Positions 1 through 20,756 of a stretch of DNA of 64,000 nt are shown one piece after another. Every line of letters starts with the position of its first letter. Position 1 is the first letter of the stretch. The DNA lies in NCBI RefSeq assembly GCF_058153355.1, contig NZ_CM177019.1; one strand, written 5' to 3'. Below the pieces are notes generated by a model. The model was given only the letters and a program-made list of their open reading frames with translations, did no database searches and was not told the origin of the DNA. The translations under genes and the position numbers were made by a program.

Positions 1-316
1 TCAGGCGTTCGATACCGTCTATTCTGACGCAAACAACGAAGCCGGATTCCTGCAAGAAGCCGCCCATATCAAACAGCTGGGCTTTGACGGCAAATCGCTG
101 ATCAACCCGCGTCAGATTGATCTGCTGCACAACCTCTACGCACCGACCCAGAAAGAAGTGGATCACGCCCGCCGCGTCGTAGAAGCCGCTGAAGCCGCCG
201 CTCGCGAAGGCCTCGGCGTGGTTTCCCTGAACGGCAAGATGGTGGACGGTCCGGTTATCGATCGCGCCCGTCTGGTGCTCTCCCGTGCAGAACTTTCCGG
301 CATCCGCGAAGAATAA
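1..316 (+). CDS. citE: Citrate lyase beta subunit, C-terminal fragment (gene starts upstream of window)
   Basis: In-frame ORF running off the 5' edge and ending at TAA 314-316, directly upstream of citF; conserved cit operon order. Confidence 0.75.
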
Positions 317-326
317 GGCAATCAAA

Positions 327-1859
327 ATGACGCAGAAAATTGAACAATCTCAACGACAAGAACGGGTAGCGGCCTGGAATCGTCGCGCTGAATGCGATCT
401 TGCCGCTTTCCAGAACTCGCCAAAGCAAACCTACCAGGCTGAAAAAGCGCGCGATCGCAAACTGTGCGCCAACCTGGAAGAAGCGATTCGTCGCTCTGGT
501 TTACAGGACGGCATGACGGTTTCCTTCCATCACGCTTTCCGTGGCGGTGACCTGACCGTCAATATGGTGATGGACGTCATCGCGAAGATGGGCTTTAAAA
601 ACCTGACTCTGGCCTCCAGCTCCCTGAGTGATTGCCATGCGCCGCTGGTAGAACACATTCGCCAGGGCGTGGTTACCCGCATTTATACCTCTGGCCTTCG
701 CGGTCCACTGGCGGAAGAAATCTCCCGTGGTCTACTGGCGGAGCCGGTGCAAATCCACTCTCACGGCGGACGTGTGCATCTGGTACAGAGCGGCGAACTG
801 AATATCGACGTGGCTTTCCTTGGCGTCCCGTCCTGTGATGAATTCGGTAATGCCAACGGCTACACCGGTAAAGCCTGCTGCGGCTCCCTCGGCTATGCAA
901 TGGTTGATGCCGACAACGCAAAACAGGTCGTGATGCTTACCGAAGAACTGCTGCCTTATCCGCATAATCCGGCAAGCATTGAGCAAGATCAGGTTGATCT
1001 GATCGTCAAAGTTGATCGCGTTGGCGATGCTGCAAAAATCGGCGCTGGTGCTACCCGTATGACCACTAACCCGCGCGAACTGCTTATTGCCCGTAGCGCT
1101 GCGGATGTGATTGTTAACTCTGGCTACTTCAAAGAAGGTTTCTCCATGCAGACCGGCACCGGCGGCGCATCGCTGGCGGTAACCCGTTTCCTGGAAGACA
1201 AAATGCGTAGCCGCGATATTCGCGCTGACTTCGCCCTCGGTGGTATTACCGCAACGATGGTTGATCTGCACGAAAAAGGCCTGATCCGCAAACTGCTGGA
1301 TGTGCAGAGCTTTGACAGCCACGCTGCACAATCGCTGGCCCGTAACCCCAATCACATCGAAATCAGCGCCAACCAGTACGCTAACTGGGGTTCAAAAGGT
1401 GCATCGGTTGATCGTCTCGACGTGGTGGTACTGAGCGCGCTGGAAATTGACACCCAGTTCAACGTTAACGTGCTGACCGGCTCTGACGGCGTACTGCGTG
1501 GCGCTTCCGGTGGTCACTGCGATACCGCGATTGCCTCTGCACTTTCCATCATCGTCGCACCGCTGGTACGCGGTCGTATTCCGACGCTGGTGGATAACGT
1601 GCTGACCTGCATCACCCCGGGCTCCAGTGTCGATATTCTGGTCACAGACCACGGTATCGCAGTTAACCCGGCACGTCCGGAACTGGCAGAACGTCTGCAG
1701 GAAGCGGGGATCAAAGTGGTTTCTATTGAGTGGCTGCGTGAACGTGCGCGTCTGCTGACCGGTGAACCACAGCCGATTGAATTCACCGACCGCGTCGTTG
1801 CCGTTGTGCGTTACCGCGATGGCTCGGTGATCGATGTTGTGCATCAGGTGAAGGAATAA
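327..1859 (+). CDS. citF: Citrate lyase alpha subunit (citrate CoA-transferase)
   Basis: ORF 285..1859; product recognised as CitF from MTQKIEQSQRQERVAAWNRR onward, so the likely start is ATG 327. Confidence 0.9.
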   Translation: MTQKIEQSQRQERVAAWNRRAECDLAAFQNSPKQTYQAEKARDRKLCANLEEAIRRSGLQDGMTVSFHHAFRGGDLTVNMVMDVIAKMGFKNLTLASSSLSDCHAPLVEHIRQGVVTRIYTSGLRGPLAEEISRGLLAEPVQIHSHGGRVHLVQSGELNIDVAFLGVPSCDEFGNANGYTGKACCGSLGYAMVDADNAKQVVMLTEELLPYPHNPASIEQDQVDLIVKVDRVGDAAKIGAGATRMTTNPRELLIARSAADVIVNSGYFKEGFSMQTGTGGASLAVTRFLEDKMRSRDIRADFALGGITATMVDLHEKGLIRKLLDVQSFDSHAAQSLARNPNHIEISANQYANWGSKGASVDRLDVVVLSALEIDTQFNVNVLTGSDGVLRGASGGHCDTAIASALSIIVAPLVRGRIPTLVDNVLTCITPGSSVDILVTDHGIAVNPARPELAERLQEAGIKVVSIEWLRERARLLTGEPQPIEFTDRVVAVVRYRDGSVIDVVHQVKE

Positions 1860-1862
1860 GCC

Positions 1863-3267
<1,405 letters not shown>

Positions 3268-3317
3268 TTATTTAAGCACTTGATAAATTTGGAAATATTA
3301 ATTTTCGGAGAACCCGT

Positions 3318-4781
3318 ATGTCTTTAGCAAAAGATAATATATGGAAACTATTGGCCCCACTGGTGGTGATGGGCGTCATGTTTCTTATCCCTGTCCCCGA
3401 CGGTATGCCACCGCAGGCATGGCATTACTTCGCTGTGTTTGTGGCAATGATTGTCGGCATGATCCTCGAGCCAATTCCGGCAACAGCGATCAGTTTTATT
3501 GCGGTTACTATTTGCGTTATTGGCAGTAATTACCTTCTCTTTGATGCCAAAGAATTAGCTGACCCAGCGTTTAATGCGCAAAAACAGGCGCTGAAATGGG
3601 GTCTGGCTGGTTTTTCCAGCACCACGGTATGGCTGGTATTTGGCGCATTTATTTTTGCATTAGGGTATGAAGTTTCCGGGTTAGGTCGTCGCATTGCCCT
3701 TTTCCTGGTGAAATTCATGGGCAAACGCACGCTGACGTTAGGTTATGCGATAGTCATTATCGACATTCTGCTGGCACCGTTTACACCGTCCAACACCGCG
3801 CGTACCGGGGGTACGGTTTTTCCGGTCATTAAAAACCTGCCGCCGCTGTTTAAATCATTCCCGAACGATCCGTCCGCGCGTCGTATTGGCGGCTATTTGA
3901 TGTGGATGATGGTCATTAGTACCAGTCTGAGTTCGTCCATGTTTGTCACCGGTGCGGCACCAAACGTGCTGGGTCTGGAGTTCGTCAGCAAAATTGCCGG
4001 CATCCAGATTAGCTGGTTGCAGTGGTTCCTCTGCTTCCTGCCGGTTGGCGTTATCTTACTTATCATTGCGCCGTGGCTTTCCTACGTGCTTTACAAACCG
4101 GAAATCACACACAGTGAAGAAGTAGCAACCTGGGCGGGTGATGAACTAAAAACCATGGGTGCGCTGACACGCAGAGAATGGACGCTGATTGGCCTTGTAT
4201 TGCTCAGCTTAGGTTTGTGGGTATTTGGCAGTGAAGTCATTAATGCTACTGCGGTAGGTCTGCTGGCAGTTTCGCTAATGCTGGCCCTGCACGTTGTGCC
4301 GTGGAAAGACATTACCCGCTATAACAGCGCATGGAACACGCTGGTCAACCTGGCAACTTTGGTTGTGATGGCTAATGGCCTGACTCGTTCTGGCTTTATT
4401 GACTGGTTCGCCGGTACCATGAGTACGCACCTGGAAGGATTCTCACCAAACGCAACGGTGATTGTACTGGTTCTGGTGTTCTACTTTGCGCACTACCTGT
4501 TTGCCAGCCTGTCTGCGCACACCGCAACCATGCTGCCGGTTATTCTGGCCGTCGGTAAAGGTATTCCGGGCGTACCAATGGAACAACTGTGTATCCTGCT
4601 GGTGCTGTCTATCGGTATCATGGGCTGTCTGACGCCGTATGCAACCGGTCCTGGGGTGATTATTTACGGCTGCGGCTATGTGAAATCAAAAGATTACTGG
4701 CGACTTAGTGCAATCTTCGGGGTGATTTACATCTCTATGTTGCTGTTGGTTGGCTGGCCGATTCTCGCCATGTGGAACTAA
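3318..4781 (+). CDS. citT: Citrate:succinate antiporter (DASS family)
   Basis: 487-aa polytopic membrane protein following citG; matches CitT. Confidence 0.9.
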   Translation: MSLAKDNIWKLLAPLVVMGVMFLIPVPDGMPPQAWHYFAVFVAMIVGMILEPIPATAISFIAVTICVIGSNYLLFDAKELADPAFNAQKQALKWGLAGFSSTTVWLVFGAFIFALGYEVSGLGRRIALFLVKFMGKRTLTLGYAIVIIDILLAPFTPSNTARTGGTVFPVIKNLPPLFKSFPNDPSARRIGGYLMWMMVISTSLSSSMFVTGAAPNVLGLEFVSKIAGIQISWLQWFLCFLPVGVILLIIAPWLSYVLYKPEITHSEEVATWAGDELKTMGALTRREWTLIGLVLLSLGLWVFGSEVINATAVGLLAVSLMLALHVVPWKDITRYNSAWNTLVNLATLVVMANGLTRSGFIDWFAGTMSTHLEGFSPNATVIVLVLVFYFAHYLFASLSAHTATMLPVILAVGKGIPGVPMEQLCILLVLSIGIMGCLTPYATGPGVIIYGCGYVKSKDYWRLSAIFGVIYISMLLLVGWPILAMWN

Positions 4782-4812
4782 TACGTTCGCCAAACGCTGA
4801 ATAAATCATCAC

Positions 4813-4847
4813 GCCCGCCAGGTAAGCCCACCTGGCGGGCTTTTTTA
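4813..4847 (+). terminator. Rho-independent terminator after citT
   Basis: GC stem cccgccaggt/acctggcggg followed by TTTTTT at 4841-4846. Confidence 0.8.
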
Positions 4848-4894
4848 TGATTTAATAGATAGTATTCAGTGTATGTATGAGTTCCACACCCATT

Positions 4895-5701
4895 ATGAAA
4901 GCATTCTGGCGTAACGCCGCGTTGCTCGCGGTTTCTCTGCTTCCCTTCTCTTTTGCCAACGCCGTGGCGTTGCAGGCAAAACAGTATGGCGATTTTGATC
5001 GCTATGTCCTGGCCCTCTCCTGGCAAACCGGATTTTGCCAGAGTCAACACGATCGAAATCGTAACGAACGAGATGAATGTCGCCTGCAAACCGAAACGAC
5101 CAACAAAGCTGATTTTCTGACCGTACATGGTCTATGGCCTGGATTGCCTAAATCGGTTGCTGCCCGTGGTGTTGATGAACGCCGCTGGATGCGCTTCGGT
5201 TGCGCTACTCGCCCAATCCCGAATCTGCCAGAAGCACGCGCCAGCCGGATGTGTTCATCGCCGGAAACTGGGTTATCACTGGAAACGGCAGCTAAACTAA
5301 GTGAAGTCATGCCAGGAGCTGGCGGACGTTCCTGCCTGGAACGCTACGAATATGCCAAACACGGTGCCTGCTTTGGTTTTGATCCAGACGCATACTTCGG
5401 CACGATGGTACGCCTGAATCAAGAAATTAAAGAGAGCGAAGCCGGAAAATTCCTTGCGGATAACTACGGTAAGACAGTGAGCCGCCGTGACTTTGACGCC
5501 GCCTTTGCCAAAAGCTGGGGAAAAGAGAACGTGAAAGCAGTTAAGCTAACGTGTCAGGGTAACCCTGCGTATTTGACTGAAATTCAGATCTCGATCAAAG
5601 CTGACGCCATCAACGCTCCGCTTTCTGCAAACTCATTCTTGCCACAACCACACCCAGGCAACTGTGGCAAAACCTTTGTGATTGATAAAGCAGGTTATTA
5701 A
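4895..5701 (+). CDS. rna: Periplasmic ribonuclease I (RNase T2 family)
   Basis: ORF 4877..5701; product recognised as RNase I from MKAFWRNAALLAVSLL (signal peptide), likely start ATG 4895. Confidence 0.9.
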   Translation: MKAFWRNAALLAVSLLPFSFANAVALQAKQYGDFDRYVLALSWQTGFCQSQHDRNRNERDECRLQTETTNKADFLTVHGLWPGLPKSVAARGVDERRWMRFGCATRPIPNLPEARASRMCSSPETGLSLETAAKLSEVMPGAGGRSCLERYEYAKHGACFGFDPDAYFGTMVRLNQEIKESEAGKFLADNYGKTVSRRDFDAAFAKSWGKENVKAVKLTCQGNPAYLTEIQISIKADAINAPLSANSFLPQPHPGNCGKTFVIDKAGY

Positions 5702-5850
5702 TCCTCTGATTTACAAAAGACGCTAATTCGTCTTCCATAAACTATGACGATTAAGATTTATACATAATGCGCTGCATTGAGGAATTCCCTGAATGTGACG
5801 CAAATCACTTCAAAGAGTGAGCAACAGTCAGTATCATCATGTGAGTTAAA

Positions 5851-5882
5851 CCCTCGCCGCCTGACGGTGAGGGTTTTCTTTT
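5851..5882 (+). terminator. Hairpin plus U-tract between rna and rnk
   Basis: 9-bp stem ccctcgccg/cggtgaggg (one G-U pair), 5-nt loop, then ttttctttt. Confidence 0.6.
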
Positions 5883-5930
5883 GGGTATGTTTATCTGCGA
5901 CACTCGCAGTACCGACGACATGGAGTAAAA

Positions 5931-6341
5931 ATGTCCAGACCAACTATCATCATTAACGACCTGGATGCCGAACGCATCGATATTCTGCTGGAGCAACCCG
6001 CCTATGCTGGTTTGCCAATCGCCGACGCGTTAAACGCAGAGTTGGATCGCGCCCAAATGTGTTCGCCAGAAGAGATGCCACACGACGTGGTGACAATGAA
6101 CAGCCGGGTTAAATTCCGCAATCTTAGCGATGGCGAAGTGCGTGTGCGCACGCTGGTGTATCCGGCAAAAATGACCGATAGCAATACTCAGCTTTCCGTT
6201 ATGGCTCCGGTAGGTGCCGCACTGCTGGGGCTGCGCGTTGGCGATTCCATTCACTGGGAACTTCCGGGCGGCGTTGCAACCCACCTTGAAGTGCTGGAAC
6301 TCGAATACCAGCCAGAAGCTGCTGGCGACTACCTGCTTTAA
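5931..6341 (+). CDS. rnk: Regulator of nucleoside diphosphate kinase (GreA/GreB-like)
   Basis: 136-aa ORF; sequence and position next to rna match Rnk. Confidence 0.85.
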
Positions 6342-6375
6342 TCCCATCTGCACAAGCGACAACTCGCTTTGCCCA

Positions 6376-6400
6376 GAGGATGCACTCGCATCCTCTTTCC
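6376..6400 (+). terminator. Rho-independent terminator after rnk
   Basis: Stem gaggatgc/gcatcctc with loop actc, followed by tttcc. Confidence 0.6.
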
Positions 6401-6696
6401 GCTCAAATATCAACCAGATTTATCATTTTGCTCTTAAGCACAGCATTCTAATCTGAACTGGTTATTCATCTGCGGAACCCCATATGAGCGAAGCTCTCAG
6501 TATCACTGCGTTTTATATATTCATAGCAGCTATTATTGTTGCTGCAGTGCTATACCTTGAACAACGCTGGTAGTACCTGGTTTTATTTATTTTCCAGATC
6601 AATCGCAAATTCAGATCGAATCAGCCTCGCAAATCATAGATTCATAATCAATAATGTGCTGTTATGTATACATGCAAAAACAAGGAGAGAATGCTT

Positions 6697-7125
6697 ATGT
6701 ACAAAACAATCATTATGCCAGTGGATGTATTTGAAATGGAATTGAGCGACAAAGCTGTTCGCCACGCTGAATTCCTCGCCCAGGATGATGGAGTTATTCA
6801 TCTACTTCACGTGCTACCAGGCTCAGCCAGCCTGAGCCTGCACCGTTTTGCCGCTGATGTGCGCCGTTTTGAAGAGCATCTGCAACATGAAGCAGAAGAA
6901 CGTCTGCAAACGATGGTAAGCCACTTCACCATCGATCCTTCCCGCATTAAACAACATGTCCGTTTTGGTAGTGTGCGGGATGAAGTTAACGAGTTAGCGA
7001 AAGAACTCGATGCAGATGTAGTGGTGATTGGTTCGCGTAATCCATCAATTTCAACCCATCTATTAGGTTCTAACGCCTCCAGTGTGATCCGTCACGCTAA
7101 TCTGCCTGTACTGGTCGTTCGCTAA
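6697..7125 (+). CDS. uspG: Universal stress protein G
   Basis: ORF 6664..7125; UspG recognised from [21 protein letters not shown], likely start ATG 6697; convergent with ahpF as in K-12. Confidence 0.85.
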
Positions 7126-7246
7126 CAGACAAAAATATTTATACCGCCCTGCCCGGAGCCATCCCGGCGGGGCTTTTTATTGCAATAAAAAAGCCGCCAG
7201 GTTTGACCCCGGCGGCTAAGCAATTGCAGGTGAATCTTACTTCTTC

Positions 7247-8812
7247 TTATGCTGTTTTGGTGCGAATCAGGTAGTCAAAAGCACTCAGAGAGGCTTTGGC
7301 ACCTTCGCCAGTGGCGATGATGATCTGCTTGTACGGAACCGTTGTACAGTCACCCGCAGCGAACACGCCTTTGACGTTGGTTTCGCATTTCGCATCAATG
7401 ATAATCTCGCCCATGCGGTTACGTTCGACTGCGCCTTCGAGCCAGTTGGTGTTCGGCAGCAGACCAATCTGGACGAAAATACCGGCCAGTTCGATGTTGT
7501 GAATATCGCCGCTGACACGATCGCGATATTCCAGACCAACAACTTTGCTGCCGTCGCCTTTCACTTCCGTGGTTTGCGCATTCAGAATAATGTCGACGTT
7601 TTTCAGGCTGCGCAGTTTGTCCTGCAGAACCTGGTCGGCTTTCATTTCTGGCGCAAATTCCAGCAGAGTTACGTGCTCAACGATACCCGCCAGGTCGATT
7701 GCCGCTTCCACGCCGGAGTTACCGCCGCCGATGACCGCTACGCGTTTGCCTTTAAACAGCGGGCCGTCGCAGTGCGGGCAGTAGGTCACGCCTTTGGTGC
7801 GATATTGATCTTCGCCCGGAACGTTCATGTTACGCCATTTTGCACCGGTCGCCACGATAATACTGCGTGCTTTCAGTACCGCGCCAGAAGCTGTTTCAAT
7901 CTGATGCAGGCCGCCTTCAACCGCTGCCGGGATCAGTTTGCTCGCGCTCTGGCTGTCGATCACATCAACGTCGTATTCATCAACGTGAACTTTCAGCGCC
8001 CCTGCCAGCTTCTGCCCTTCAGTCTTCGGTACAGAAATGTAGTTTTCGATATCAACGGTATCGAGGATCTGACCACCAAAACGTTCACCCATCAGACCGG
8101 TACGGATGCCTTTACGTGCGGAGTAAATTGCTGCCGCTGCACCCGCCGGGCCGGAACCAACGATTAATACGTCATAAACATCACGCTTGTTCAGCTCTTC
8201 TGCCGCACGTTTTTCCGCGCCAGTATCAATTTTGGCGACGATTTCGGAAATAGTCATGCGGCCCTGACCAAACTCTTTCCCGTTTACGAACACTGCCGGA
8301 ACGCCCATCACGTTGCGATCGGTGATTTCGTTCTGGAAGGTGCCGCCGTCAATTGCCGTATGCTTAATACGCGGATTCAGTACGCTCATCAGGTTCAGCG
8401 CCTGCACTACGTCCGGGCAGTTGTGGCAAGAGAGCGAGTAATAGGTTTCGAATTCAAAATCACCGTCAATATGGCGAATCTGCTCCAGCAGAGACTGCGC
8501 TTCTTTCGACGGATGACCTCCGGTCCACAACAACGCCAGTACCAGCGAGGTGAACTCGTGGCCCAGCGGGGAACCTGCAAAACGTGGCCCCTGGTTGGAA
8601 CCTGGGTTAGTGATCAGGAAAGACGGCTTACGCACTGGCAAGCTGTTATCTTCTTTAAAGGTGACTTTGTCTGACAGTTCTGCGATTTCAGCCAACAGTT
8701 CCTTGATTTCTGCCGATTTAGCGCTGTCATCCAGCGTGGCAATTAACTCAACAGGCTTGGTCAATTTCTCAAGGTAAGCCTTGAGTTGAGTTTTCATATT
8801 TGTGTCGAGCAT
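7247..8812 (-). CDS. ahpF: Alkyl hydroperoxide reductase subunit F (flavoprotein disulfide reductase)
   Basis: ORF 7247..8842; AhpF recognised from [23 protein letters not shown] motifs [10 protein letters not shown] and CPHCDG present. Confidence 0.95.
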
Positions 8813-8982
8813 GTTTATCTCCTGGGCTTTAAACATCATCATGCAAGCGGCCTCTGCGGCTACCTGGATGCAGCTTGCATCATGGTGCGGGGAAGAAAAT
8901 CGGGTGCCGCAGCACCCGATTAATTAGGTGAATTTCCGAACTATTTCGCGCCGGAGTTGGTAACGCGAAAGACGAAGGAAAT

Positions 8983-9546
8983 TTAGATTTTACCAACCAG
9001 GTCCAGGGATGGAGCCAGAGTTGCTTCACCTTCTTTCCATTTAGCCGGGCAAACTTCACCTGGGTGAGAAGCCACGTACTGTGCTGCTTTGATTTTACGC
9101 AGCAGGTCAGACGCGTCACGGCCAATGCCTTCAGCGGTAACTTCGATTGCCTGGATGATACCCTGCGGGTCAACAACGAAGGTTGCACGGTCAGCCAGAC
9201 CTTCATCTTCACGCATGTTGTCGAAGTTACGGGTCAGGGCGCCAGTCGGGTCGCCGATCATCGCATATTTGATTTTAGCGATAGTTTCAGAGCTGCTGTG
9301 CCATGCTTTGTGGGTGAAGTGAGTATCGGTAGATACTGCGTATACATCTACGCCCAGTTTCTGCAGTTCTTCGTAGTGGTCAGCAACGTCACCCAATTCG
9401 GTCGGGCATACGAAAGTAAAGTCAGCCGGGTAGAAGAAGAAGACGCTCCAGCGGCCTTCGGTATCTTTTTCGGTGATTTCGATGAATTCGCCGTTTTTGA
9501 ATGCCTGGTTTTTAAAAGGTTTAATTTTGGTGTTAATCAAGGACAT
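8983..9546 (-). CDS. ahpC: Alkyl hydroperoxide reductase subunit C (peroxiredoxin)
   Basis: 187-aa [24 protein letters not shown]..., typical 2-Cys peroxiredoxin; upstream of ahpF. Confidence 0.95.
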
Positions 9547-9918
9547 CTATACTTCCTCCGTGTTTTCGATGAGATGTAAGGTAACCAATTTTTGCCGATT
9601 CGGCTAATGCGTTTCCATTATCAAATCGATAAGTTTTACCTTACAACCGTCGTAAGACAACTTTGTGAACTTTGCACCGCCAGTGGCGATAAAAAGTAAA
9701 ATGGGCCCCCTTTCCAGGTGACCGTGTAATCTGAACTACCCTTTGGTATCTTCAGCGCCTGCCTGCAGGCTGTGGTGTTGCCCTTACAAATGCAACAACG
9801 ACATGGATTACAACACCCTCATAAACAAAGGGCAATCACCTGATCTAAGCTCTTACCTATGACAGTGATAGGTTATGCCTTTTACTCCATTTTTGCACTG
9901 ACTGAAAAGGACAAATTA
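9547..9918. promoter_or_regulatory. Divergent ahpC / dsbG promoter region (expected OxyR-controlled)
   Basis: Intergenic region between divergently transcribed ahpC and dsbG; OxyR control is established knowledge for this locus, individual sites not mapped here. Confidence 0.5.
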
Positions 9919-10664
9919 ATGTTAAAAAAGATACTTTTACTGGCTCTGCTTCCTACAATCGCCTTTGCAGAGGAACTTCCTGCTCCGGTAAAAGCGATTG
10001 AAAAACAGGGCATTAAGATCATCAAAACGTTCGATGCCCCCGGCGGAATGAAAGGTTATCTCGGCAAGTATCAGGATATGGGCGTCACCATCTACCTGAC
10101 TCCAGATGGTAAGCACGCTATCTCTGGTTACATGTACAACGAGAAAGGTGAAAACCTGAGTAACATGCTTATCGAAAAAGAAATTTATGCGCCAGCCGGA
10201 CGCGAAATGTGGCAACGGATGGAACAATCGCACTGGCTCCTCGACGGTAAAAAAGACGCGCCAGTCATAGTCTACGTTTTCGCCGATCCGTTCTGCCATA
10301 TTGTAAACAGTTCTGGCAGCAGGCGCGCCCGTGGGTTGATTCTGGCAAAGTACAGTTGAGAACATTGTTGGTTGGGGTTATCAAACCAGAAAGTCCGGCG
10401 ACAGCCGCGGCAATTCTGGCCTCTAAAGATCCCTCAAAAACCTGGCAAGAATATGAAGCCTCTGGCGGCAAACTTAATCTAAATGTGCCTACAAACGTAA
10501 GTACAGAGCAAATGAAAGTGTTAAGCGACAACGAGAAACTCATGGACGATCTGGGGGCAAATGTCACACCGGCTATCTATTACATGAGTAAGGAAAATAC
10601 GCTGCAACAGGCCGTGGGGTTGCCCGATCAGAAAACGCTTAATATCATTATGGAAAATAAATAG
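9919..10664 (+). pseudogene. dsbG: Periplasmic disulfide isomerase DsbG, frameshifted inside the CPYC active-site codons
   Basis: ORFs 9859..10359 and 10356..10664 are in different frames; the window reads ...FADPFC then 'cat att gta aac' where CPYCKQFW is expected, consistent with one missing C in a C-run near 10294-10297. Confidence 0.8.
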
Positions 10665-10871
10665 AAGATAATTCATGGGTGGTTGAAATACATCCTTGCT
10701 TTTCAACCATTCTAAAAACGCATGAATTGCTTCTTCCCCTCCAGACAACTGTGTTACTTTAGAAAAACTTAATCCAGAGTTAAGTAATAAAACATAACAA
10801 ATATAAATAAAACAGTAGAATCATTGATTACAAGAATGATTTATGGACAAGATAATATAACGGAGTATGTT

Positions 10872-11774
10872 ATGGCTAATCTTTATGATTTAAAAAAATT
10901 CGACCTCAATTTACTGGTCATATTTGAGTGCATTTATCAACACCTCAGCATTAGCAAAGCAGCAGAATCATTATATATAACGCCATCTGCCGTTAGTCAG
11001 TCGTTACAACGTTTACGCGCGCAATTTAATGACCCGTTATTCATCCGCTCAGGGAAAGGTATCGCGCCGACTACAACAGGGTTAAATCTGCATCACCATC
11101 TTGAGAAAAATCTCCGAGGCCTTGAACAAACGATCAATATCGTTAATAAGTCTGAGCTGAAGAAAAATTTTATTATCTACGGTCCTCAGCTTATTTCTTG
11201 TAGTAATAACAACATGCTAATCCGCTGTCTAAGACAAGATACTTCAATCGATATAGAATGCCATGACATACTGCTTTCAGCTGAAAACGCTGAAGAATTG
11301 TTAGTTCAACGCAAAGCTGACCTGGCAATTACACTGCAACCAGTAATTAGCCGCTCTGTCATCTGCATGCCGGTACATACTATTCGCAATTCTCTTATAT
11401 GTAGCAACAAACATCCTCGTATTACCGATACCAGTAACTATGAACAAATTATCGCCGAAGAATTCACCTTGTTGATATCTAAATCAGCAGGGATTGACGA
11501 AATTCAAATGGACATAGATGAACGTTTTATGAACCGTAAAGTTTCATTTCGCAGTTCTTCTTTGTTGACGATAATTAATAGTATTTCTGTTACTGACTTA
11601 TTGGGCATTGTGCCCACCGAACTGTACGATTTACATCGTGATTTTTTGAAGTTACAAGAGATAAAACTGGAACGACCACTTCCTACGGTTAAACTTTATA
11701 TTTCCTATAACAAGGCTTCGTTGAACAACCTTGTCTTCTCACGATTCATAGATCGTTTAAATGATAGCTTCTGA
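10872..11774 (+). CDS. ybdO: LysR-family transcriptional regulator
   Basis: ORF 10824..11774; YbdO recognised from MANLYDLKKFDLNLLVIFECIYQHLSISKAAESL (LysR HTH); AT-rich gene and upstream region. Confidence 0.8.
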   Translation: MANLYDLKKFDLNLLVIFECIYQHLSISKAAESLYITPSAVSQSLQRLRAQFNDPLFIRSGKGIAPTTTGLNLHHHLEKNLRGLEQTINIVNKSELKKNFIIYGPQLISCSNNNMLIRCLRQDTSIDIECHDILLSAENAEELLVQRKADLAITLQPVISRSVICMPVHTIRNSLICSNKHPRITDTSNYEQIIAEEFTLLISKSAGIDEIQMDIDERFMNRKVSFRSSSLLTIINSISVTDLLGIVPTELYDLHRDFLKLQEIKLERPLPTVKLYISYNKASLNNLVFSRFIDRLNDSF

Positions 11775-11920
11775 TTTATTACCACGGATAAATGTTATAT
11801 TACGCATCAATTGATTCATTGTGTGAATATAAAATAATGTGCTCTATCTTGCTTCGTTTACCCTATAATTAGCGGATTCATCTCACAAGTCACCCAGTAA
11901 CGTTCAGAGAGCGTTTTCAG

Positions 11921-13141
11921 ATGTCTATTTATAAAATCCCTCTTCCGCTGAATATTTTAGAAGCTGCACAGGAACGTATTACCTGGACACTTAACACCTT
12001 GCCCCGTGTTTGCGTTTCTTTTTCGGGGGGTAAAGATTCCGGATTAATGCTGCATCTTACCGCCGAACTTGCCAGAAAATTGGGAAAAAAAATCTGCGTT
12101 TTGTTTATCGACTGGGAAGCACAGTTCTCTTGTACCATCGACTATGTACAGTCGTTACGCGAGTTGTATACCGACGTTATTGAAGAGTTTTACTGGGTAG
12201 CACTCCCACTCAAGACGCAAAATTCCCTTTCACAATACCAACCAGAATGGCAGTGCTGGGAATCTGATGTCGAATGGGTGCGTCAGCCCCCGCAAGAAGC
12301 GATAACCGATCCTGACTTTTTCTCCTTTTACCAGCCAGGCATGACCTTCGAACAATTTGTACGTGAGTTTGCCGAATGGTTTTCACAAAAACGTCCGGCG
12401 GCGATGATGATCGGCATCCGTGCGGATGAGTCCTACAACCGTTTTGTCGCCATCGCCAGTTTAAGTAAACAACGTTTTGCCGATGATAAGCCCTGGACCA
12501 CAGCCGCACCAGGCGGTCACAGCTGGTACATTTACCCCATCTACGACTGGAAAGTAGCTGATATCTGGACCTGGTATGCTAATCATAAAACCCTATGTAA
12601 CCCATTGTATAATATCATGTATCAGGCAGGCGTCCCCCTGCGTCATATGCGAATTTGCGAACCTTTTGGCCCGGAGCAACGGCAAGGATTATGGCTCTAT
12701 CACGTTATCGAACCAGATCGCTGGGCGGCTATGTGCGCACGAGTTAGCGGGGTAAAAAGTGGCGGCATTTACGCCGGACATGACAATCATTTTTATGGTC
12801 ATCGGAAAATCCTCAAACCAGAGCATTTAGACTGGCAAGAGTATGCATTATTGCTGCTTGATAGCATGCCGGAGAAAACGGCTGAGCATTACCGCAACAA
12901 AATTGCCATTTACTTGCATTGGTATCAGAAAAAAGGTGTCGAGGTGCCACAGACCCAGCACGGGGACATTGGCGCGAAAGATATCCCCTCCTGGCGGCGA
13001 ATTTGCAAGGTGTTACTGAATAACGATTACTGGTGTCGGGCATTATCATTTAGCCCAACCAAAGCGAAGAATTATCAGCGTTATAACGAACGGATAAAAG
13101 TAAAACGTCAGGAGTGGAGAATACTATGCAACAACAATTAA
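11921..13141 (+). CDS. ybdN: PAPS-reductase-like PP-loop ATP pyrophosphatase family protein (IbrA paralogue)
   Basis: 406-aa ORF with PP-loop motif SFSGGKDS at about nt 12017-12040; matches YbdN. Confidence 0.85.
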   Translation: MSIYKIPLPLNILEAAQERITWTLNTLPRVCVSFSGGKDSGLMLHLTAELARKLGKKICVLFIDWEAQFSCTIDYVQSLRELYTDVIEEFYWVALPLKTQNSLSQYQPEWQCWESDVEWVRQPPQEAITDPDFFSFYQPGMTFEQFVREFAEWFSQKRPAAMMIGIRADESYNRFVAIASLSKQRFADDKPWTTAAPGGHSWYIYPIYDWKVADIWTWYANHKTLCNPLYNIMYQAGVPLRHMRICEPFGPEQRQGLWLYHVIEPDRWAAMCARVSGVKSGGIYAGHDNHFYGHRKILKPEHLDWQEYALLLLDSMPEKTAEHYRNKIAIYLHWYQKKGVEVPQTQHGDIGAKDIPSWRRICKVLLNNDYWCRALSFSPTKAKNYQRYNERIKVKRQEWRILCNNN

Positions 13142-13743
13142 CGCAGGATTTAACCCAATTTCTCGCCAGCTTGCCGGAAGACGATCGCATCAAAGCGATT
13201 AACGAAATCCGCCTGGCGATCCATCAGGTTAGCCCCTTTCGTGAAGAGCCAGTAGATTGTGTTCTGTGGGTTAAAAACAGCCAACTTATGCCAAATGATT
13301 ACAACCCAAACAATGTGGCACCGCCCGAGAAAAAACTGTTACAAAAATCCATTGAGATAGATGGTTTTACCCAACCTATTGTGGTCACGCACACAGATAA
13401 AAATGCTCTGGAAATCGTGGATGGCTTTCACCGTCATGAAATTGGTAAAGGCTCTAACACTTTAAAAATGCGATTAAAAGGATATTTACCGGTCACCTGT
13501 CTGGAAGGAACACGTAACGAACGCATCGCCGCGACTATTCGTCATAACCGCGCTCGTGGACGCCACCAAATCACAGCCATGTCAGAAATCGTTCGTGAAC
13601 TCAGCCAGTTAGGATGGGACGACAATAAAATCGGCAAAGAGCTGGGTATGGACAGCGACGAAGTGTTGCGCCTGAAACAAATTAACGGCCTGCAAGAGTT
13701 ATTTGCTGACCGTCAATATTCCCGCGCCTGGACAGTAAAATAA
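13114..13743 (+). CDS. ybdM: ParB/Srx-like nuclease-domain protein (IbrB paralogue)
   Basis: 209-aa ORF overlapping the ybdN 3' end; DGFHR motif (ParB/DndB-like DGxHR) at nt 13420-13434. Confidence 0.85.
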   Translation: MENTMQQQLTQDLTQFLASLPEDDRIKAINEIRLAIHQVSPFREEPVDCVLWVKNSQLMPNDYNPNNVAPPEKKLLQKSIEIDGFTQPIVVTHTDKNALEIVDGFHRHEIGKGSNTLKMRLKGYLPVTCLEGTRNERIAATIRHNRARGRHQITAMSEIVRELSQLGWDDNKIGKELGMDSDEVLRLKQINGLQELFADRQYSRAWTVK

Positions 13744-14904
13744 TTACAGCTGGCGCAGGCGTTCAGCTGCCGCCAGCAACGTCGATTCCTTCTTGGCAAA
13801 ACAGAGACGAATGAGCTTATGGGGGAAGGGATCGGCGCAAAATACCGACAGCGGGATCGCCGCCACGCCATGCTCCCGCGTCAGCCTCTGGCAAAACTCA
13901 ACGTCATCCAGCGAAGAAACCGCGCTGTAATCCACCAGCAAAAAGTAAGTGCCTTCGCACGGTAAAATCTCCAGCCGACTCTCACTTAAGGCGTTCACCA
14001 GAATATCGCGCTTCTGGCGATAAAAGTCCGGTAACGCAAGATAGTGTTCAGGTTCTGCTCGCAGCATATCGGCAAGGGCCAGCTGCGCCGGGGTATTCAC
14101 CGAAAAAGTCAGATACTGATGCACTTTGCGGATCTCGGCGCTGATGGGCGCAGGCGCAACGCAATAGCCCACTTTCCAGCCGGTCATATGATAGGTCTTG
14201 CCAAACGATGACACCGCCACCGCCCGCTCACGCAGTTGCGGATGCGCCAGCACACTGGCATGGCCCTGCTGTGAAAAGTTGATATGCTCGTAAACTTCAT
14301 CGCTAATGACAAAAATCTCGTGCCCGGCAATTGCCTGCCACAAAGCGGAAAAATCAGTCTGCTGCCAGACAGTAGCACTGGGGTTATGCGGGGTGTTAAG
14401 GATCACCAGTCGGGTGCGCTCGCTTAACAATGCGGCAAATTCCTGCCAGTCCACGCGAAAATGCGGTGGTTGCAGTGCAATACGTTTCACTATTCCACCC
14501 GCAAGCGTGATGGCGGGGGCGTAACTGTCATAGCTGGGATCAAAGCAAATCACTTCATCGCCATTGCGCACCAATGCAGTAATCGCTGCGTACAGCGCTT
14601 CCGTCGCCCCTGCTGTTACGGTGATATCGCTGTCGGCATCTGGTTGATAGCCATACAGCCGTTCCGTTTTCTGAGCAATCGCCTCGCGCAAGGCCTGCAC
14701 GCCAGTCATAGGCGCGTATTGGTTTGCTCCCTGGGCAACGTGGTACGCCAGCCGTTCCTGCAAATAGCGCGGACCATCAAAATCAGGAAAGCCTTGTGAC
14801 AGGTTAATCGCCTGGTGTTGCTGCGCCAGTGCGCTCATCTGGGTGAAAATAGTGGTGCCAAGTTGTGGAAGTTTGCTTTGTGGAATCAGAGGGTTATTTG
14901 TCAT
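13744..14904 (-). CDS. ybdL: Methionine aminotransferase (PLP-dependent, class I)
   Basis: ORF 13744..14922; YbdL recognised from MTNNPLIPQSKLPQLGTTIF; PLP lysine context SSFGKTYHMTGWKVGY. Confidence 0.85.
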   Translation of the reverse strand: MTNNPLIPQSKLPQLGTTIFTQMSALAQQHQAINLSQGFPDFDGPRYLQERLAYHVAQGANQYAPMTGVQALREAIAQKTERLYGYQPDADSDITVTAGATEALYAAITALVRNGDEVICFDPSYDSYAPAITLAGGIVKRIALQPPHFRVDWQEFAALLSERTRLVILNTPHNPSATVWQQTDFSALWQAIAGHEIFVISDEVYEHINFSQQGHASVLAHPQLRERAVAVSSFGKTYHMTGWKVGYCVAPAPISAEIRKVHQYLTFSVNTPAQLALADMLRAEPEHYLALPDFYRQKRDILVNALSESRLEILPCEGTYFLLVDYSAVSSLDDVEFCQRLTREHGVAAIPLSVFCADPFPHKLIRLCFAKKESTLLAAAERLRQL

Positions 14905-15012
14905 TTTTATTGTGCCTGACAAAGTTGCGTGTTGAAGCCACTATAACACGATGCTAGTATTTGGCAATCAAGACGTTTAGATGTCTAAATAAAACAATAA
15001 GGACAACACAAC

Positions 15013-16101
15013 ATGCCTCACAATCCTATCCGCGTCGTCGTTGGCCCTGCTAACTACTTTTCTCATCCCGGCAGTCTCAATCACCTGCATGATTTTTTCA
15101 CTGATGAACAACTTTCTCGCGCAGTGTGGATCTACGGTGAACGTGCACTTGCCGCGGCGCAAACCAAACTTCCATCGGCGTTTGAACTGCCAGGAGCAAA
15201 GCATATTTTGTTTCGCGGTCATTGCAGTGAAAGCGATGTGCAACAACTGGCGGCTGAGTCCGGTGACGATCGCAGCGTAGTGATTGGCGTCGGCGGCGGC
15301 GCACTGCTCGACACCGCGAAAGCCCTCGCCCGCCGTCTCGGTCTGCCGTTTGTTGCCGTTCCAACGATTGCCGCTACTTGCGCTGCCTGGACACCGCTCT
15401 CCGTCTGGTATAACGATGCCGGACAGGCGCTACATTATGAGATTTTCGACGACGCCAATTTTATGGTGCTGGTGGAACCGGAGATTATCCTCAATGCGCC
15501 GCAAGAATATCTGCTGGCGGGAATCGGTGACACGCTGGCGAAATGGTATGAAGCGGTGGTGCTGGCCCCACAACCAGAAACGTTGCCGCTAACCGTACGG
15601 CTGGGGATTAATAATGCGCAGGTCATTCGCGACGTCTTGTTAAACAGTAGCGAACAGGCGCTTGCCGATCAGCAAAATCAGCAGTTAACGCAATCATTTT
15701 GCGATGTGGTCGATGCGATTATCGCCGGAGGCGGAATGGTCGGTGGTCTGGGCGATCGTTTTACGCGTGTGGCGGCGGCCCATGCCGTGCATAACGGTCT
15801 GACCGTTTTGCCGCAAACCGAGAAGTTTCTCCACGGCACCAAAGTCGCCTACGGAATTCTGGTGCAAAGCGCCTTGCTGGGTCAGGATGATGTGCTGGCG
15901 CAATTAACCGGGGCGTATCAGCGTTTTCATCTGCCGACCACGCTGGCGGAGCTGGAAGTGGATATCAATAATCAGGCAGAGATCGACAAAGTGATTGCGC
16001 ACACCTTGCGTCCGGTGGAATCCATTCATTATCTGCCAGTCACGCTGACACCAGATACTTTGCGTGCAGCGTTCGAAAAAGTGGAATCGTTTAAAGCCTG
16101 A
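15013..16101 (+). CDS. hcxA: Iron-containing alcohol / hydroxycarboxylate dehydrogenase
   Basis: 362-aa ORF, glycerol-dehydrogenase-like fold (GVGGGALLDTAKA); position matches ybdH (hcxA). Confidence 0.8.
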   Translation: MPHNPIRVVVGPANYFSHPGSLNHLHDFFTDEQLSRAVWIYGERALAAAQTKLPSAFELPGAKHILFRGHCSESDVQQLAAESGDDRSVVIGVGGGALLDTAKALARRLGLPFVAVPTIAATCAAWTPLSVWYNDAGQALHYEIFDDANFMVLVEPEIILNAPQEYLLAGIGDTLAKWYEAVVLAPQPETLPLTVRLGINNAQVIRDVLLNSSEQALADQQNQQLTQSFCDVVDAIIAGGGMVGGLGDRFTRVAAAHAVHNGLTVLPQTEKFLHGTKVAYGILVQSALLGQDDVLAQLTGAYQRFHLPTTLAELEVDINNQAEIDKVIAHTLRPVESIHYLPVTLTPDTLRAAFEKVESFKA

Positions 16102-16110
16102 CGTACAAAT

Positions 16111-16308
16111 TTAGCAGCAGCGCGCGCCGCCTTTTCCACCGTAGCGCGCGTCCTGCCGCTCACGGAAAAACTCCTCGTAGGTCATCGGCGTTTGATCGGG
16201 ATGGTTAACCCGCATATGTTCGACATAGTTGTCGTAATCAGGCATACCAATCATCAGCTTCGCCGCCTGACCTAAATATTTTCCGGCTTTTGCCAGTGAA
16301 TCAAACAT
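16111..16308 (-). CDS. ybdD: Small DUF466 protein co-transcribed with cstA
   Basis: 65-aa [36 protein letters not shown]... immediately downstream of cstA on the same strand. Confidence 0.75.
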
Positions 16309-16450
16309 CAATACCTCCGGTAATCAGGTTGCTGAGAGAGTGCATTAATAGCTATCAACGCGCTCGGTCAGTCCCCTCGCCCCACCGGGGAGAGGGTTAG
16401 GGTGAGGGGGAACCCTAGGCACTACGCCAACATCCCCCCTCACTCTGACT

Positions 16451-18556
16451 TTAGTGCGCGCCTTTCGCCTGCGCCACGATCTCCTCGACATTTTCCGGCA
16501 TTGGCTCATACGGCGTTTCTTTCGCCGTTGGCTTCGGATCTTTCAATGCTGCCAGTGCCGTCTTAATCGAGAACAGCGCCAGAACCACCACAACCACCAT
16601 AAAGAAGATGGTTAATCCGGCATCCAGACGGTTGTTGAACACCAGTTGCGCCAGTTGTGACTCAGTATACTGCGACGGAATATTGCCGCTGTCGATCATT
16701 GCCTGGAACTTGTTAGCAATCGCCAGAAAACCGACTTTCGCATCCGGGCTAAACGCTTTCTGCCAGCCTGCGGTCAGGGTACAAATCAGTAGCCAGGCCG
16801 TTGGTACCAGCGCCACCCAGGCGTAACGTTGACGTTTCATTTTGAACAGCACCACAGCACAAAGCATCAGCGCCATCCCTGCCAACATCTGGTTGGCAAT
16901 ACCAAACAGTGGCCACAGAGTGTTAATACCGCCCAGCGGATCGACCACGCCCTGATGCAGAAAGTAACCCCAAGCCAGCACGCACAGCGCCGTTGCCAGC
17001 AGGTTAGCAGGCAGTGAATCAGTCCGTTTCAGGCCCGGAGAAACCACGCCCAGCAGATCCTGCAACATAAAGCGCGCAGCACGCGTACCCGCATCCACCG
17101 CCGTCAGAATAAACAGTGCTTCAAACAGAATGGCGAAGTGATACCAGAACGCCACATCCATCATGCCACCCAGCGCGCCGTGCAGAATGTAGGCCATCCC
17201 CACCGCCAGGGTCGGCGCACCGCCCGCACGGGAAATGATCGACTGTTCACCCACTTCGCTGGCAATCTGATTTAACGTATCTGGCGTAATGCTAAAGCCC
17301 CAGCTACTCACTACCTGCGCAGCAGATGCCACTACATCCGCCGTCCCCGCCGGAGCCAGCACCGCCATCGGGCTGTTCATCGCGAAGTACACGCCCGGAT
17401 CGATGATACAGGCAGAAACCAGTGCCATAATCGCCACGAAGGATTCCATCAACATCCCGCCGTAGCCGATAAAGCACGCCTGACCTTCGTTCGCCAGCAT
17501 CTTCGGTGTGGTGCCGGAAGAGATCAGCGCATGGAAGCCAGACACCGCGCCACAGGCGATAGTAATAAACAGGAACGGGAACAGATTACCGGTCCATACC
17601 GGACCAGTGCCATCTACAAATTTGGTCAGCGCAGGCATGGTCAGCGTCGGACGCATAATCAAAATGCCTACCGCCAGACCGACGATAGTCCCGATTTTCA
17701 GGAAGGTAGAGAGGTAGTCACGCGGAGCCAGCAGCAACCACACCGGCAGAACCGCCGCCACAAAACCGTAACCCACCAGCATCCAGGTCAGCTGCACGCC
17801 GGTAAAGTCAAAGTACGGTGCCCAGGTCGGGCTTTCTGCCACCCAGCCGCCAGAGATAATGGCGAAAATAAGGAATACCAGGCCAATCACCGACACTTCC
17901 CCAATGCGGCCCGGACGCAGATAGCGCAGGTAAATCCCCATGAACAGCGCCAGCGGAATGGTGAACGCAACGGTATACGTTCCCCACGGGCTATGAGTCA
18001 GGGCTTTCACCACGATCATCGCCAGTACTGCAAGGATAATGACCATGATCATAAAGCAGGCCACCAGCGCAATCACCCCGGCGGTTGGCCCCATCTCTTC
18101 TTTAACCAGCTCGCCCAGCGAGCGACCGTCACGGCGCGTGGAAACAAACAGCACCATGAAATCCTGCACCGCACCGGCGAGAACCACTCCGGCAAGTAGC
18201 CAGATCATCCCCGGTAGGTAGCCCATTTGCGCTGCCAGTACCGGCCCCACCAACGGGCCTGCTCCGGCAATAGCCGCAAAATGGTGACCGAACAGCACTT
18301 TCTTGTCCGTCGGCACATAGTCCAGCCCGTCGTTATGGCGCACCGCTGGCGTCATACGCGTCGGGTCAACCGCCAATACATTTTTGGCGATATAAAGACC
18401 ATAAAAACGGTAAGCGATCAGATAGATACAGACCGACGCCACCACAATCCACAGCGCGTTGATCTGTTCCCCACGATTTAAAGCAATGTATCCCAGAGCA
18501 AATGCTCCCATTACAGAGAGCACTGTCCAGACGAGGTATTTCCCTGATTTGTTCAT
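16451..18556 (-). CDS. cstA: Carbon starvation protein A (peptide/pyruvate transporter family)
   Basis: 701-aa polytopic membrane protein; matches CstA; located between ybdD and entH as in K-12. Confidence 0.9.
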   Translation of the reverse strand: MNKSGKYLVWTVLSVMGAFALGYIALNRGEQINALWIVVASVCIYLIAYRFYGLYIAKNVLAVDPTRMTPAVRHNDGLDYVPTDKKVLFGHHFAAIAGAGPLVGPVLAAQMGYLPGMIWLLAGVVLAGAVQDFMVLFVSTRRDGRSLGELVKEEMGPTAGVIALVACFMIMVIILAVLAMIVVKALTHSPWGTYTVAFTIPLALFMGIYLRYLRPGRIGEVSVIGLVFLIFAIISGGWVAESPTWAPYFDFTGVQLTWMLVGYGFVAAVLPVWLLLAPRDYLSTFLKIGTIVGLAVGILIMRPTLTMPALTKFVDGTGPVWTGNLFPFLFITIACGAVSGFHALISSGTTPKMLANEGQACFIGYGGMLMESFVAIMALVSACIIDPGVYFAMNSPMAVLAPAGTADVVASAAQVVSSWGFSITPDTLNQIASEVGEQSIISRAGGAPTLAVGMAYILHGALGGMMDVAFWYHFAILFEALFILTAVDAGTRAARFMLQDLLGVVSPGLKRTDSLPANLLATALCVLAWGYFLHQGVVDPLGGINTLWPLFGIANQMLAGMALMLCAVVLFKMKRQRYAWVALVPTAWLLICTLTAGWQKAFSPDAKVGFLAIANKFQAMIDSGNIPSQYTESQLAQLVFNNRLDAGLTIFFMVVVVVLALFSIKTALAALKDPKPTAKETPYEPMPENVEEIVAQAKGAH

Positions 18557-18736
18557 AGTTGTTATCCGTGTGCGTGTCCATAGAGATGTTACATTTTGTT
18601 TCTATAACATCTTTGTGCAATTTAACAACACGGCAACTATGTAAATCGGAGTTGAAACCAATATTTAACTTAACAATGTTAACTTGATCACTTCGTTAAC
18701 TGAGTTTTCCTGCAATCTCATTTAATTCTGTCGGGT

Positions 18737-19898
<1,162 letters not shown>

Positions 19899-19899
<1 letters not shown>

Positions 19900-20756
19900 C
19901 ATTTCACCTCGCGGGAGAGTAGCTTCCACCAGGCATCGATGGTCGGATTTTTCGCCAGCATGACAAAATCGATATCGCCATGCACTTTGCGCCAGCGCGC
20001 CGCCAGCGCCATCATGCGCACCGAATCCAGACCGTAATCAATTAGGTTGTCGTCATCGAACGGCTCATCGGACTCGTCCAGCAACGGCAGGATCACCTCT
20101 CGCAGCGCCGCTTTAGTTGAAGGGATCGGTGCAGGTAATAGTTCTTCGGTCATCACCACCCGGCCAGAGCGCCCGGCTACATATTTCAGCGACATCAAAT
20201 GCTCGTCACGACTGAAATCGGCCAGCGCATCCGCCACCATAAACGGTTTAATATCGCGCATAAATGCGTCGGTTGCGGTGGTCATACAGCCAATGTGGGC
20301 GTATACCCCGGTAATAATCAACTGGTTACGTCCACTCTCTTTGAGCATTTGCTCCAGCGGAGAACGATGAAACGCGCTGTAGCGCCACTTCACCAACACC
20401 GTGTCGTCGGCATCTGGCGTCAGGCGATCCACCACCTTTTGCTGTTCCGGCGAACGGGTCAGGCCCGGTCCCCACATATCATTCAACAGCGCCCGATCTT
20501 CATCGCTCTGCTCTTTCGGCTGGGCGGTGTAATAAACCGGGATATTGTGCTGTTTGCAGTAGTCGCGTAGTGCCGCAATATTCGCGATCACCTGCTCCAT
20601 CATCGGACAGTTCTCGCCCCAGAAGCTGACAAAATAGTCCTGCATATCATGGATTAACAACGCGGCACGTTGCGGCTCAAAGGCCCAGTTGACTTTATTG
20701 TGCGGAATATCGTGAGACTCCGGCAGTGCGTAAGCCTGTAATTTTGGAATAGCCAT
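19899..20756 (-). CDS. entB: Isochorismatase / aryl carrier protein
   Basis: 285-aa ORF MAIPKLQAYALPESHDIP...; C-terminal carrier-domain serine context YGLDSVRMM. Confidence 0.9.

Follow-up and report, generated by a model that had tools for sequence, protein, structure and literature searches.

In the window, i.e., the whole analysed stretch of 64,000 nucleotides, a short interval lies between rnk and uspG, and it holds a 29-codon open reading frame (ORF). The question is how this interval is related to that of Escherichia coli K-12 and whether the ORF is a gene. A preliminary description had placed ybdR, of roughly 1.2 kb, between uspG and rnk in K-12, and considered it apparently absent here. 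The best explanation, which is held with good confidence, is a natural short rnk-uspG haplotype without ybdR, in which the small gene yldA is kept as a diverged allele; its product would act in a YoaI-like mode.

Layout of the interval and alignment to K-12

The gene order in the window is citT, rna, rnk, the spacer and uspG, followed by ahpF and ahpC on the minus strand. The features of the interval are given below.

5931-6341 (+): rnk coding sequence (regulator of nucleoside diphosphate kinase), left flank, from the ORF and the RefSeq annotation of matching genomes
6342-6696: rnk-uspG spacer, 355 bp
6350-6372 and 6375-6396 (+): two hairpins 3' of rnk, from folding and inverted repeats
6403-6678: haplotype-specific block, 276 bp, from blastn against K-12
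6474-6477 (+): GGAA resembling a weak Shine-Dalgarno, 6 nt ahead of the yldA ATG
6484-6573 (+): yldA, 29 codons, from ATG at 6484 to TAG at 6573, encoding MSEALSITAFYIFIAAIIVAAVLYLEQRW
6574-6696 (+): yldA-uspG interval, 123 bp
6682-6687 (+): uspG Shine-Dalgarno AAGGAG, inside the yldA-uspG interval
6697-7125 (+): uspG coding sequence (universal stress protein G), right flank

With the rnk end at 6341 and the uspG start at 6697, the spacer has the length of about 355 bp that had been reported. The rnk gene showed 100% nucleotide identity to K-12 rnk over 408 nt. In the second of the hairpins behind it (6375-6396), a perfect stem of 9 bp closes a 4-nt loop, and UUUCC comes next. The region 6342-6420 folds at -24.1 kcal/mol (z = -5.65), a value equalled by 0 of 200 shuffles, and a stricter terminator scan made no call at these hairpins. 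The hairpin at 6375-6396 is the probable rnk terminator, a weak one with a short U-tract.

The terminator scan also made no call in the yldA-uspG interval, the fold of 6565-6660 was no better than shuffles (z = 0.19), and a consensus promoter scan of the spacer found no sigma-70 site. In Rfam over 5700-7300, only rnk_leader scored above its gathering score, and no antitoxin or sRNA family was found in the spacer. This rnk_leader (RF01771), a known cis-regulatory leader, was placed at 5777-5885 (+), just upstream of rnk, at full length with 124.9 bits against a gathering score of 50, and it includes a terminator-like hairpin at 5848-5876. In a permissive Rfam search, snoZ223 was matched in the spacer (E = 0.003). 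The model describes a eukaryotic snoRNA and its gathering score was not reached; the match was rejected as chance.

On either side of yldA, at 6451-6472 and 6595-6616, lie the arms of an imperfect inverted repeat of 22 nt with 77% complementarity. Its duplex energy was unusual (z about -3.2) in the window and in a single close relative (locus L009), but not in locus L008, E. albertii, K-12 or other genera. It was considered as the mark of a mobile cassette or as 5'-3' pairing of the mRNA, and both were rejected because it is absent beyond the window and its close relative. The repeat is probably not functional.

In MG1655, the order is rnk > yldA > < ybdR, uspG >. There, yldA (90 nt) lies on the rnk strand between rnk and ybdR, and ybdR, of 1239 nt, lies on the opposite strand with its stop codon 3 nt from that of yldA. 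A gene of the size first noted is thus indeed found at this place in K-12, where rnk and uspG are not adjacent. Since K-12 has yldA as well as ybdR, the window ORF is not a stand-in for ybdR and does not occupy its place.

The window was aligned to K-12 by blastn (word size 7) over 5701-6402 (98.9%) and 6679-7300 (91.5%) only. The polymorphism was confirmed by this alignment, and its boundaries are the breakpoints 6402/6403 and 6678/6679. The left breakpoint lies 6 nt past the stem of the second rnk 3' hairpin, and the right one 18 nt ahead of the uspG ATG, just before AAGGAG. The 276 bp between them (6403-6678) correspond to 1611 bp of K-12, which hold the K-12 allele of yldA, ybdR and the region upstream of uspG.

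The alternative that a K-12-like ancestor had recently lost ybdR by a simple deletion, with the ORF left behind, was weighed against this alignment. The segment 6403-6678 gave no BLAST alignment to either K-12 flank of ybdR. A YbdR remnant was searched in the spacer by tblastn with seven YbdR proteins and none was detected (all E > 1), which bears out the absence of ybdR from the window. Moreover, the window and K-12 yldA alleles are identical at only 15 of 29 residues (52%) and 47 of 87 nt (54%), with saturated synonymous sites, although the adjoining rnk is 100% identical. Judged from these alignments, the difference from K-12 is the replacement of a diverged block including yldA, and not a clean deletion of ybdR.

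The divergence is also raised on the uspG side. The uspG gene showed 91.1% nucleotide and 98% protein identity to K-12, and identity to K-12 was 93-94% over 6501-7500 against 97-98% further right up to about 10000. The raised silent divergence continues rightwards from the block for about 800 bp, across uspG and the 3' end of ahpF (6697-7500). Such a pattern is as expected if recombination is suppressed beside a non-homologous segment.

Other observations were made on the surroundings. A second strongly diverged segment, near the uspG one, was found at 10501-12000, where identity to K-12 was 84%, 82% and 75% in successive 500-bp bins versus 92-98% in neighbouring bins; by position, it falls between dsbG and ybdN, in the citR (ybdO) region. 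Over the first 20 kb of the window, no complete E. coli genome in the collection exceeded 99.0% identity. The window lineage therefore either lacks a near-identical complete genome over 1-20000 or is a mosaic. The rnk gene is identical to that of K-12, yet the window spacer matched only 18 genomes at 99% identity or more.

The small gene yldA

The ORF at 6484-6573, with its 29 codons and its translation as first noted, is the already known gene yldA, which is annotated and has a curated family. The window protein is identical to RefSeq WP_349813939.1, annotated as "small membrane protein YldA". The commoner allele of the short haplotype, WP_001287361.1, is the E. albertii sequence and differs in a single residue, i.e., G6 instead of S6 of the window. 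In the NCBIfam equivalog model NF041476 (YldA), which has a curated cut-off of 45 bits, the window protein scored 57.9 bits (E = 6.8e-16, aligned over 1-29 of 29), and all 34 orthologues described below were matched. In Pfam PF23689 (YldA-like), the window protein reached 26.5 bits (E = 6.5e-6) against a gathering threshold of 27, whereas K-12 YldA scored 73.6 bits and an Enterobacter orthologue 31.4. From these scores, the Pfam model is apparently centred on the K-12-type allele.

The codon at 6484 is the first start codon past an in-frame stop, which excludes an extension at the N-terminus. The protein has one hydrophobic core at residues 5-23, with a best 19-residue Kyte-Doolittle mean of 2.65, between the N-terminus MSEA and the C-terminal tail YLEQRW. 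This agrees with the small protein with a single transmembrane segment that had been proposed, and the segment is a prediction.

The orthologues were searched in one genome per species with Rnk, i.e., 80 Enterobacteriaceae loci. A 29-codon hydrophobic ORF at the same offset downstream of rnk was found in 34 of them. In 44 loci, yldA is lacking and uspG is kept, and the remaining 2 of the 80 are cut by contig ends. Degraded yldA was sought in the yldA-negative spacers of the 44 species, and none was found (maximum 8.5 bits, within the shuffled range). The genera with yldA are Escherichia, Citrobacter, Enterobacter, Lelliottia, Leclercia, Phytobacter, Kosakonia and Pseudenterobacter, in which it lies about 143 nt downstream of rnk. 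The ORF is on the rnk strand and starts about 140-150 nt past the rnk stop, and the window ATG is at 143 nt.

The 34 loci, the window and K-12 were combined into a set of 36 sequences, and the length was exactly 29 codons in 36 of 36. The entropy at codon positions 1, 2 and 3 was 0.66, 0.48 and 1.18, and the median pairwise dN/dS was 0.22. The window and E. albertii alleles differ at 8 nt with one amino-acid change. These values indicate that yldA is under purifying selection. In a 34-sequence protein alignment from the set, the residues M1, E3, A21, V22, L25 and E26 were invariant, and all six are present in the window protein.

The Shine-Dalgarno had been called weak, and this holds for the window. 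The anti-Shine-Dalgarno duplex of GGAA was -3.5 kcal/mol, a value matched by 29% of random 20-mers of the window, against -7.1 for uspG and a mean of -6.1 kcal/mol for the yldA orthologues. A purine-rich GGRR motif is found at the same position in the orthologues. In K-12, the YldA protein is made, as detected by a chromosomal SPA tag and immunoblot in LB (VanOrsdel 2018, Table 1; PMC6001520); this detection applies to the K-12 allele only. In an RNA-seq analysis, ybdR and yldA were listed as a convergent overlapping pair (PMC12288877). No YldA relative was found in the PDB.

A chance open frame in an AT-rich spacer could have the same appearance. As many as 60 ORFs of at least 25 codons overlap the 4.5 kb of 4500-9000, so the length of the yldA ORF alone is not beyond chance, and its Shine-Dalgarno is weak. 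However, the length of exactly 29 codons in all 36 sequences, which come from 8 or more genera, the codon-position pattern and dN/dS, the passing of the curated equivalog model and the detected K-12 product all speak against it. Conservation and family membership lift the ORF above chance, and the chance reading has a negligible probability. That yldA is a real small membrane protein gene is nearly certain. The preliminary description was correct in what it observed and how it interpreted it, and the feature is ordinary and already known. Beyond it, the ORF has a name and an annotation, K-12 also has yldA, and the difference is a block replacement.

Haplotypes in E. coli and turnover across genera

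The short form, i.e., the window type with rnk, yldA and uspG contiguous, was found in about 1815 of 5426 complete E. coli genomes. An uninterrupted rnk-yldA-uspG stretch like that of the window was matched in 1816 genomes, where the ORF is likewise labelled "small membrane protein YldA" by RefSeq. The window-type block 6403-6695 was present at 99% identity or more in 18 genomes and at 95-99% in 1783. The K-12-type yldA-ybdR segment was found in 3600 of the 5426, and in genomes without it the match was confined to the first 61 nt past rnk. Presence or absence of ybdR is thus an ordinary and common E. coli polymorphism, about two-thirds with and one-third without.

The short spacer of the window is collinear with those of E. 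albertii (85-91%) and Citrobacter sp. R56 (64-73%), at distances that track those of rnk and uspG. The yldA-uspG interval alone is also collinear, with 85% identity to E. albertii and 64% to Citrobacter sp. R56. On the other side, the ybdR genes of Salmonella and C. sedlakii share about 79.5% identity with that of K-12, i.e., they are at genus-level distance. From the genus-level distances of ybdR and of the short spacer, both blocks are old, apparently of the age of the genera, and the ybdR difference is inferred to be an old two-haplotype polymorphism, not a recent deletion. The two E. coli YldA classes (52% identity) each have their nearest relatives in Citrobacter. The short form was found in three of three non-K-12 Escherichia representatives sampled, and it is therefore more likely to be the ancestral state of Escherichia, as judged from three representatives without E. 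fergusonii, which was not among the loci.

Real ybdR deletions are found elsewhere, and they leave scars. In E. coli HH97 (locus L004, 2962-3306), the rnk side is of the K-12 type and a deletion of most of ybdR leaves a 192-bp pseudogene. Its yldA is fused into a 46-codon ORF, MAEAF...LENNSWQRLVLIYFPGSIAKFR, and its uspG-side flank aligns to K-12 at only 79%. HH97 is a third arrangement of the rnk-uspG interval. The short form of Enterobacter asburiae TN152 retains about 47 nt of the ybdR 3' end, as compared with a ybdR-carrying relative. Deletions of this kind make a recent loss conceivable for the window as well, but its entire spacer is collinear with E. albertii and the Citrobacter lineage at distances tracking rnk and uspG, and together with the alignments to K-12 this makes a recent deletion extremely unlikely.

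Across the 80 Rnk-anchored loci, ybdR was found in 22. The combinations of the two genes are as follows.

yldA present, ybdR present: 12 loci, e.g., C. sedlakii and several Enterobacter (also K-12)
yldA present, ybdR absent: 22 loci, e.g., other Escherichia, several Citrobacter, Lelliottia and Phytobacter (also the window)
yldA absent, ybdR present: 10 loci, e.g., Salmonella, Silvania and some Enterobacter
yldA absent, ybdR absent: 34 loci, e.g., the C. freundii group, Kluyvera and most Kosakonia

On this distribution, gain and loss of yldA and of ybdR are independent of each other across genera. When yldA was clustered with 35 nt upstream, four groups were obtained. The window group holds E. 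albertii, two other non-K-12 Escherichia representatives, Citrobacter sp. R56, NCU1 and Awk4, and C. amalonaticus S646, and all of its members are without ybdR. The K-12 group holds C. sedlakii, C. amalonaticus AUH and a Citrobacter MAG.

The two C. amalonaticus loci, S646 (L019) and AUH (L023), share a species label and carry a window-like and a K-12-like yldA class, respectively. With 481 and 513 bp, the spacers of both are unusually long. These two loci suggest that the two-haplotype polymorphism is present in Citrobacter as well.

The locus is of interest as one in which a 29-codon gene persists under selection while its surroundings turn over. The two E. coli yldA classes differ as much as alleles of different genera, and this matters when K-12 small-protein data are extrapolated to B2/ExPEC-type strains.

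The three genes rnk, yldA and uspG point the same way in the short haplotype, and the yldA stop lies 123 nt before uspG. Transcription of yldA would come from rnk read-through past the weak terminator or from a putative promoter in 6403-6483. Because no terminator was found past yldA in the short form, transcripts may continue into uspG. In ybdR-carrying genomes, yldA transcription would converge on ybdR. Any regulatory coupling would accordingly be expected to differ between the two-thirds and the one-third of E. coli strains.

This arrangement also brings in another reading of the ORF, namely as a leader or upstream ORF whose translation tunes uspG or reports rnk read-through and whose peptide is functionless. 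The shared orientation and the short terminator-free distance to uspG would suit it. However, purifying selection acts on the amino-acid sequence, with its six invariant residues, a convergent ybdR separates yldA from uspG in 12 of the 34 yldA loci and in K-12, and 44 of the 80 loci have uspG without any yldA. The homologue YoaI, moreover, acts as a protein (PMC11429745). A leader ORF is thus very unlikely.

Homology to YoaI and comparison with known systems

In the NCBIfam equivalog model NF041475 (YoaI), the window YldA fell short of the cut-off of 45 with 30.2 bits (E = 3.6e-7), and all 34 YldA orthologues were matched at E of 0.01 or less, the best at 1.2e-8. In the reverse direction, YoaI matched the NCBIfam YldA model at E = 0.035 only. 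A YoaI profile was built from K-12 YoaI, taken from the genome, and 23 relatives found by phmmer over the full library. With our own HMMs, YldA scored a mean of 21.3 bits against the YoaI profile versus 0.4 +/- 1.8 (maximum 8.6) for shuffled sequences, and the reciprocal test gave 24.7 bits versus 0.2 +/- 2.0. Seven unrelated small membrane proteins, used as the control, did not exceed 8 bits. The hhalign comparison gave 96.7% probability (E = 3.8e-10) over 27 columns in register, i.e., E3 to E8, I7-T8 to I12-T13, V22 to V27 and E26 to E31. Short hydrophobic helices can converge in sequence, but the shuffles and the control proteins speak against it. By these profile comparisons, YldA belongs with YoaI as a homologue or paralogue and is not itself a YoaI. 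No paper linking YldA to YoaI was found, and YldA is absent from the YoaI paper and from a 2025 review of small membrane proteins. The homology is possibly one new point.

According to Vellappan et al. (PMC11429745), YoaI interacts with EnvZ in a two-hybrid assay and increases the output of EnvZ-OmpR. Ser26, Val27 and Glu31 of YoaI are invariant, and Glu31 lies in a short cytoplasmic tail. Both E31A and E31Q abolished EnvZ binding and activation (PMC11429745).

YldA is predicted to cross the inner membrane once, by a helix of about residues 5-23. Its topology would be N-out and C-in, as proposed for the homologue YoaI, with the acidic M-S-E end in the periplasm and the Y-L-E-Q-R-W tail in the cytoplasm. 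It most likely binds a larger inner-membrane protein, as YoaI does with EnvZ. The best candidate for the partner is a sensor histidine kinase, which would be contacted via the invariant juxtamembrane Glu26 in the motif A-V-L-Y-L-E. By analogy, the retained YoaI glutamate suggests modulation of a sensor kinase by YldA, and this role is put forward only tentatively. The partner of YldA may differ from that of YoaI, because a serine is changed to alanine and five N-terminal residues are fewer. A more specific proposal, and a somewhat doubtful one, is that YldA is an unrecognised YoaI paralogue that tunes EnvZ or another sensor kinase via Glu26, with the two allele classes differing in partner or strength. 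The allele class would also go together with the fate of yldA transcription, which enters uspG in the short form and meets ybdR head-on in the long form. If it is true, one-third of E. coli strains would wire a stress-signalling connector otherwise than K-12.

Overexpressed YoaI delays growth (PMC11429745), and this would also suit a hydrophobic peptide resembling the type I toxins Ibs, Ldr, ShoB and TisB and silenced by an antisense RNA. The ORF is small and hydrophobic with a weak Shine-Dalgarno, and the imperfect 22-nt inverted repeat flanks it in the window. However, neither an antitoxin nor an sRNA family was found by Rfam in the spacer, conservation of the repeat does not extend to E. 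albertii or to other genera, yldA is single-copy at one conserved chromosomal site, and K-12 YldA accumulates during normal growth in LB (PMC6001520). A toxin of this type is thus highly improbable, and the short haplotype with a diverged yldA allele stays the preferred reading. The additions of the analysis to what was known are modest, i.e., the block replacement, the independent turnover of yldA and ybdR, and the YldA-YoaI homology.

As an accessory-gene polymorphism, the locus has the usual features, i.e., a single metabolic gene at a fixed site, patchy across Enterobacteriaceae, and YbdR is a member of the zinc-dependent alcohol dehydrogenase family. Unlike an ordinary accessory-gene indel, a whole diverged block including the second gene yldA is exchanged here, and the divergence runs into uspG.

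K-12 YldA (MAEAFYILIGFLIMAAIIVMAVLYLENHS; NF041476, PF23689) is among the closest known counterparts. Both proteins have 29 aa and a single hydrophobic helix, lie about 140 nt downstream of rnk, have the six invariant residues in common and score 57.9 bits on NF041476. In contrast, the flanking DNA of the K-12 gene is not alignable to the window, and K-12 yldA converges on ybdR, whereas window yldA is followed by uspG. At the C-terminal end, the window has QRW, near the family consensus ERHW, and K-12 has NHS.

The small proteins MgrB, SafA and MzrA are known modulators of kinases (PMC11429745, PMC12648545). The mode of action proposed for YldA is like that of the pairs MgrB-PhoQ, SafA-PhoQ and MzrA-EnvZ, in which a histidine kinase is bound by a small membrane protein. 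The likeness is no more than an analogy, and no sequence relationship was found between YldA and MgrB, SafA or MzrA.

YoaI is related to YldA in sequence. It has the columns E-x-L-x-I-T ... I-A ... V ... V-L-x-(L/I)-E-R in common with YldA; its Glu31, needed for EnvZ binding, aligns with the invariant E26 of YldA, and its V27 with V22. YldA is 5 residues shorter at the N-terminus than YoaI (34 aa), and the invariant Ser26 of YoaI is Ala21 in every YldA. The loci are different, i.e., yeaK-yoaI-yeaL for YoaI, and YoaI is PhoB-regulated. The homology gives a specific functional lead for an orphan small protein.
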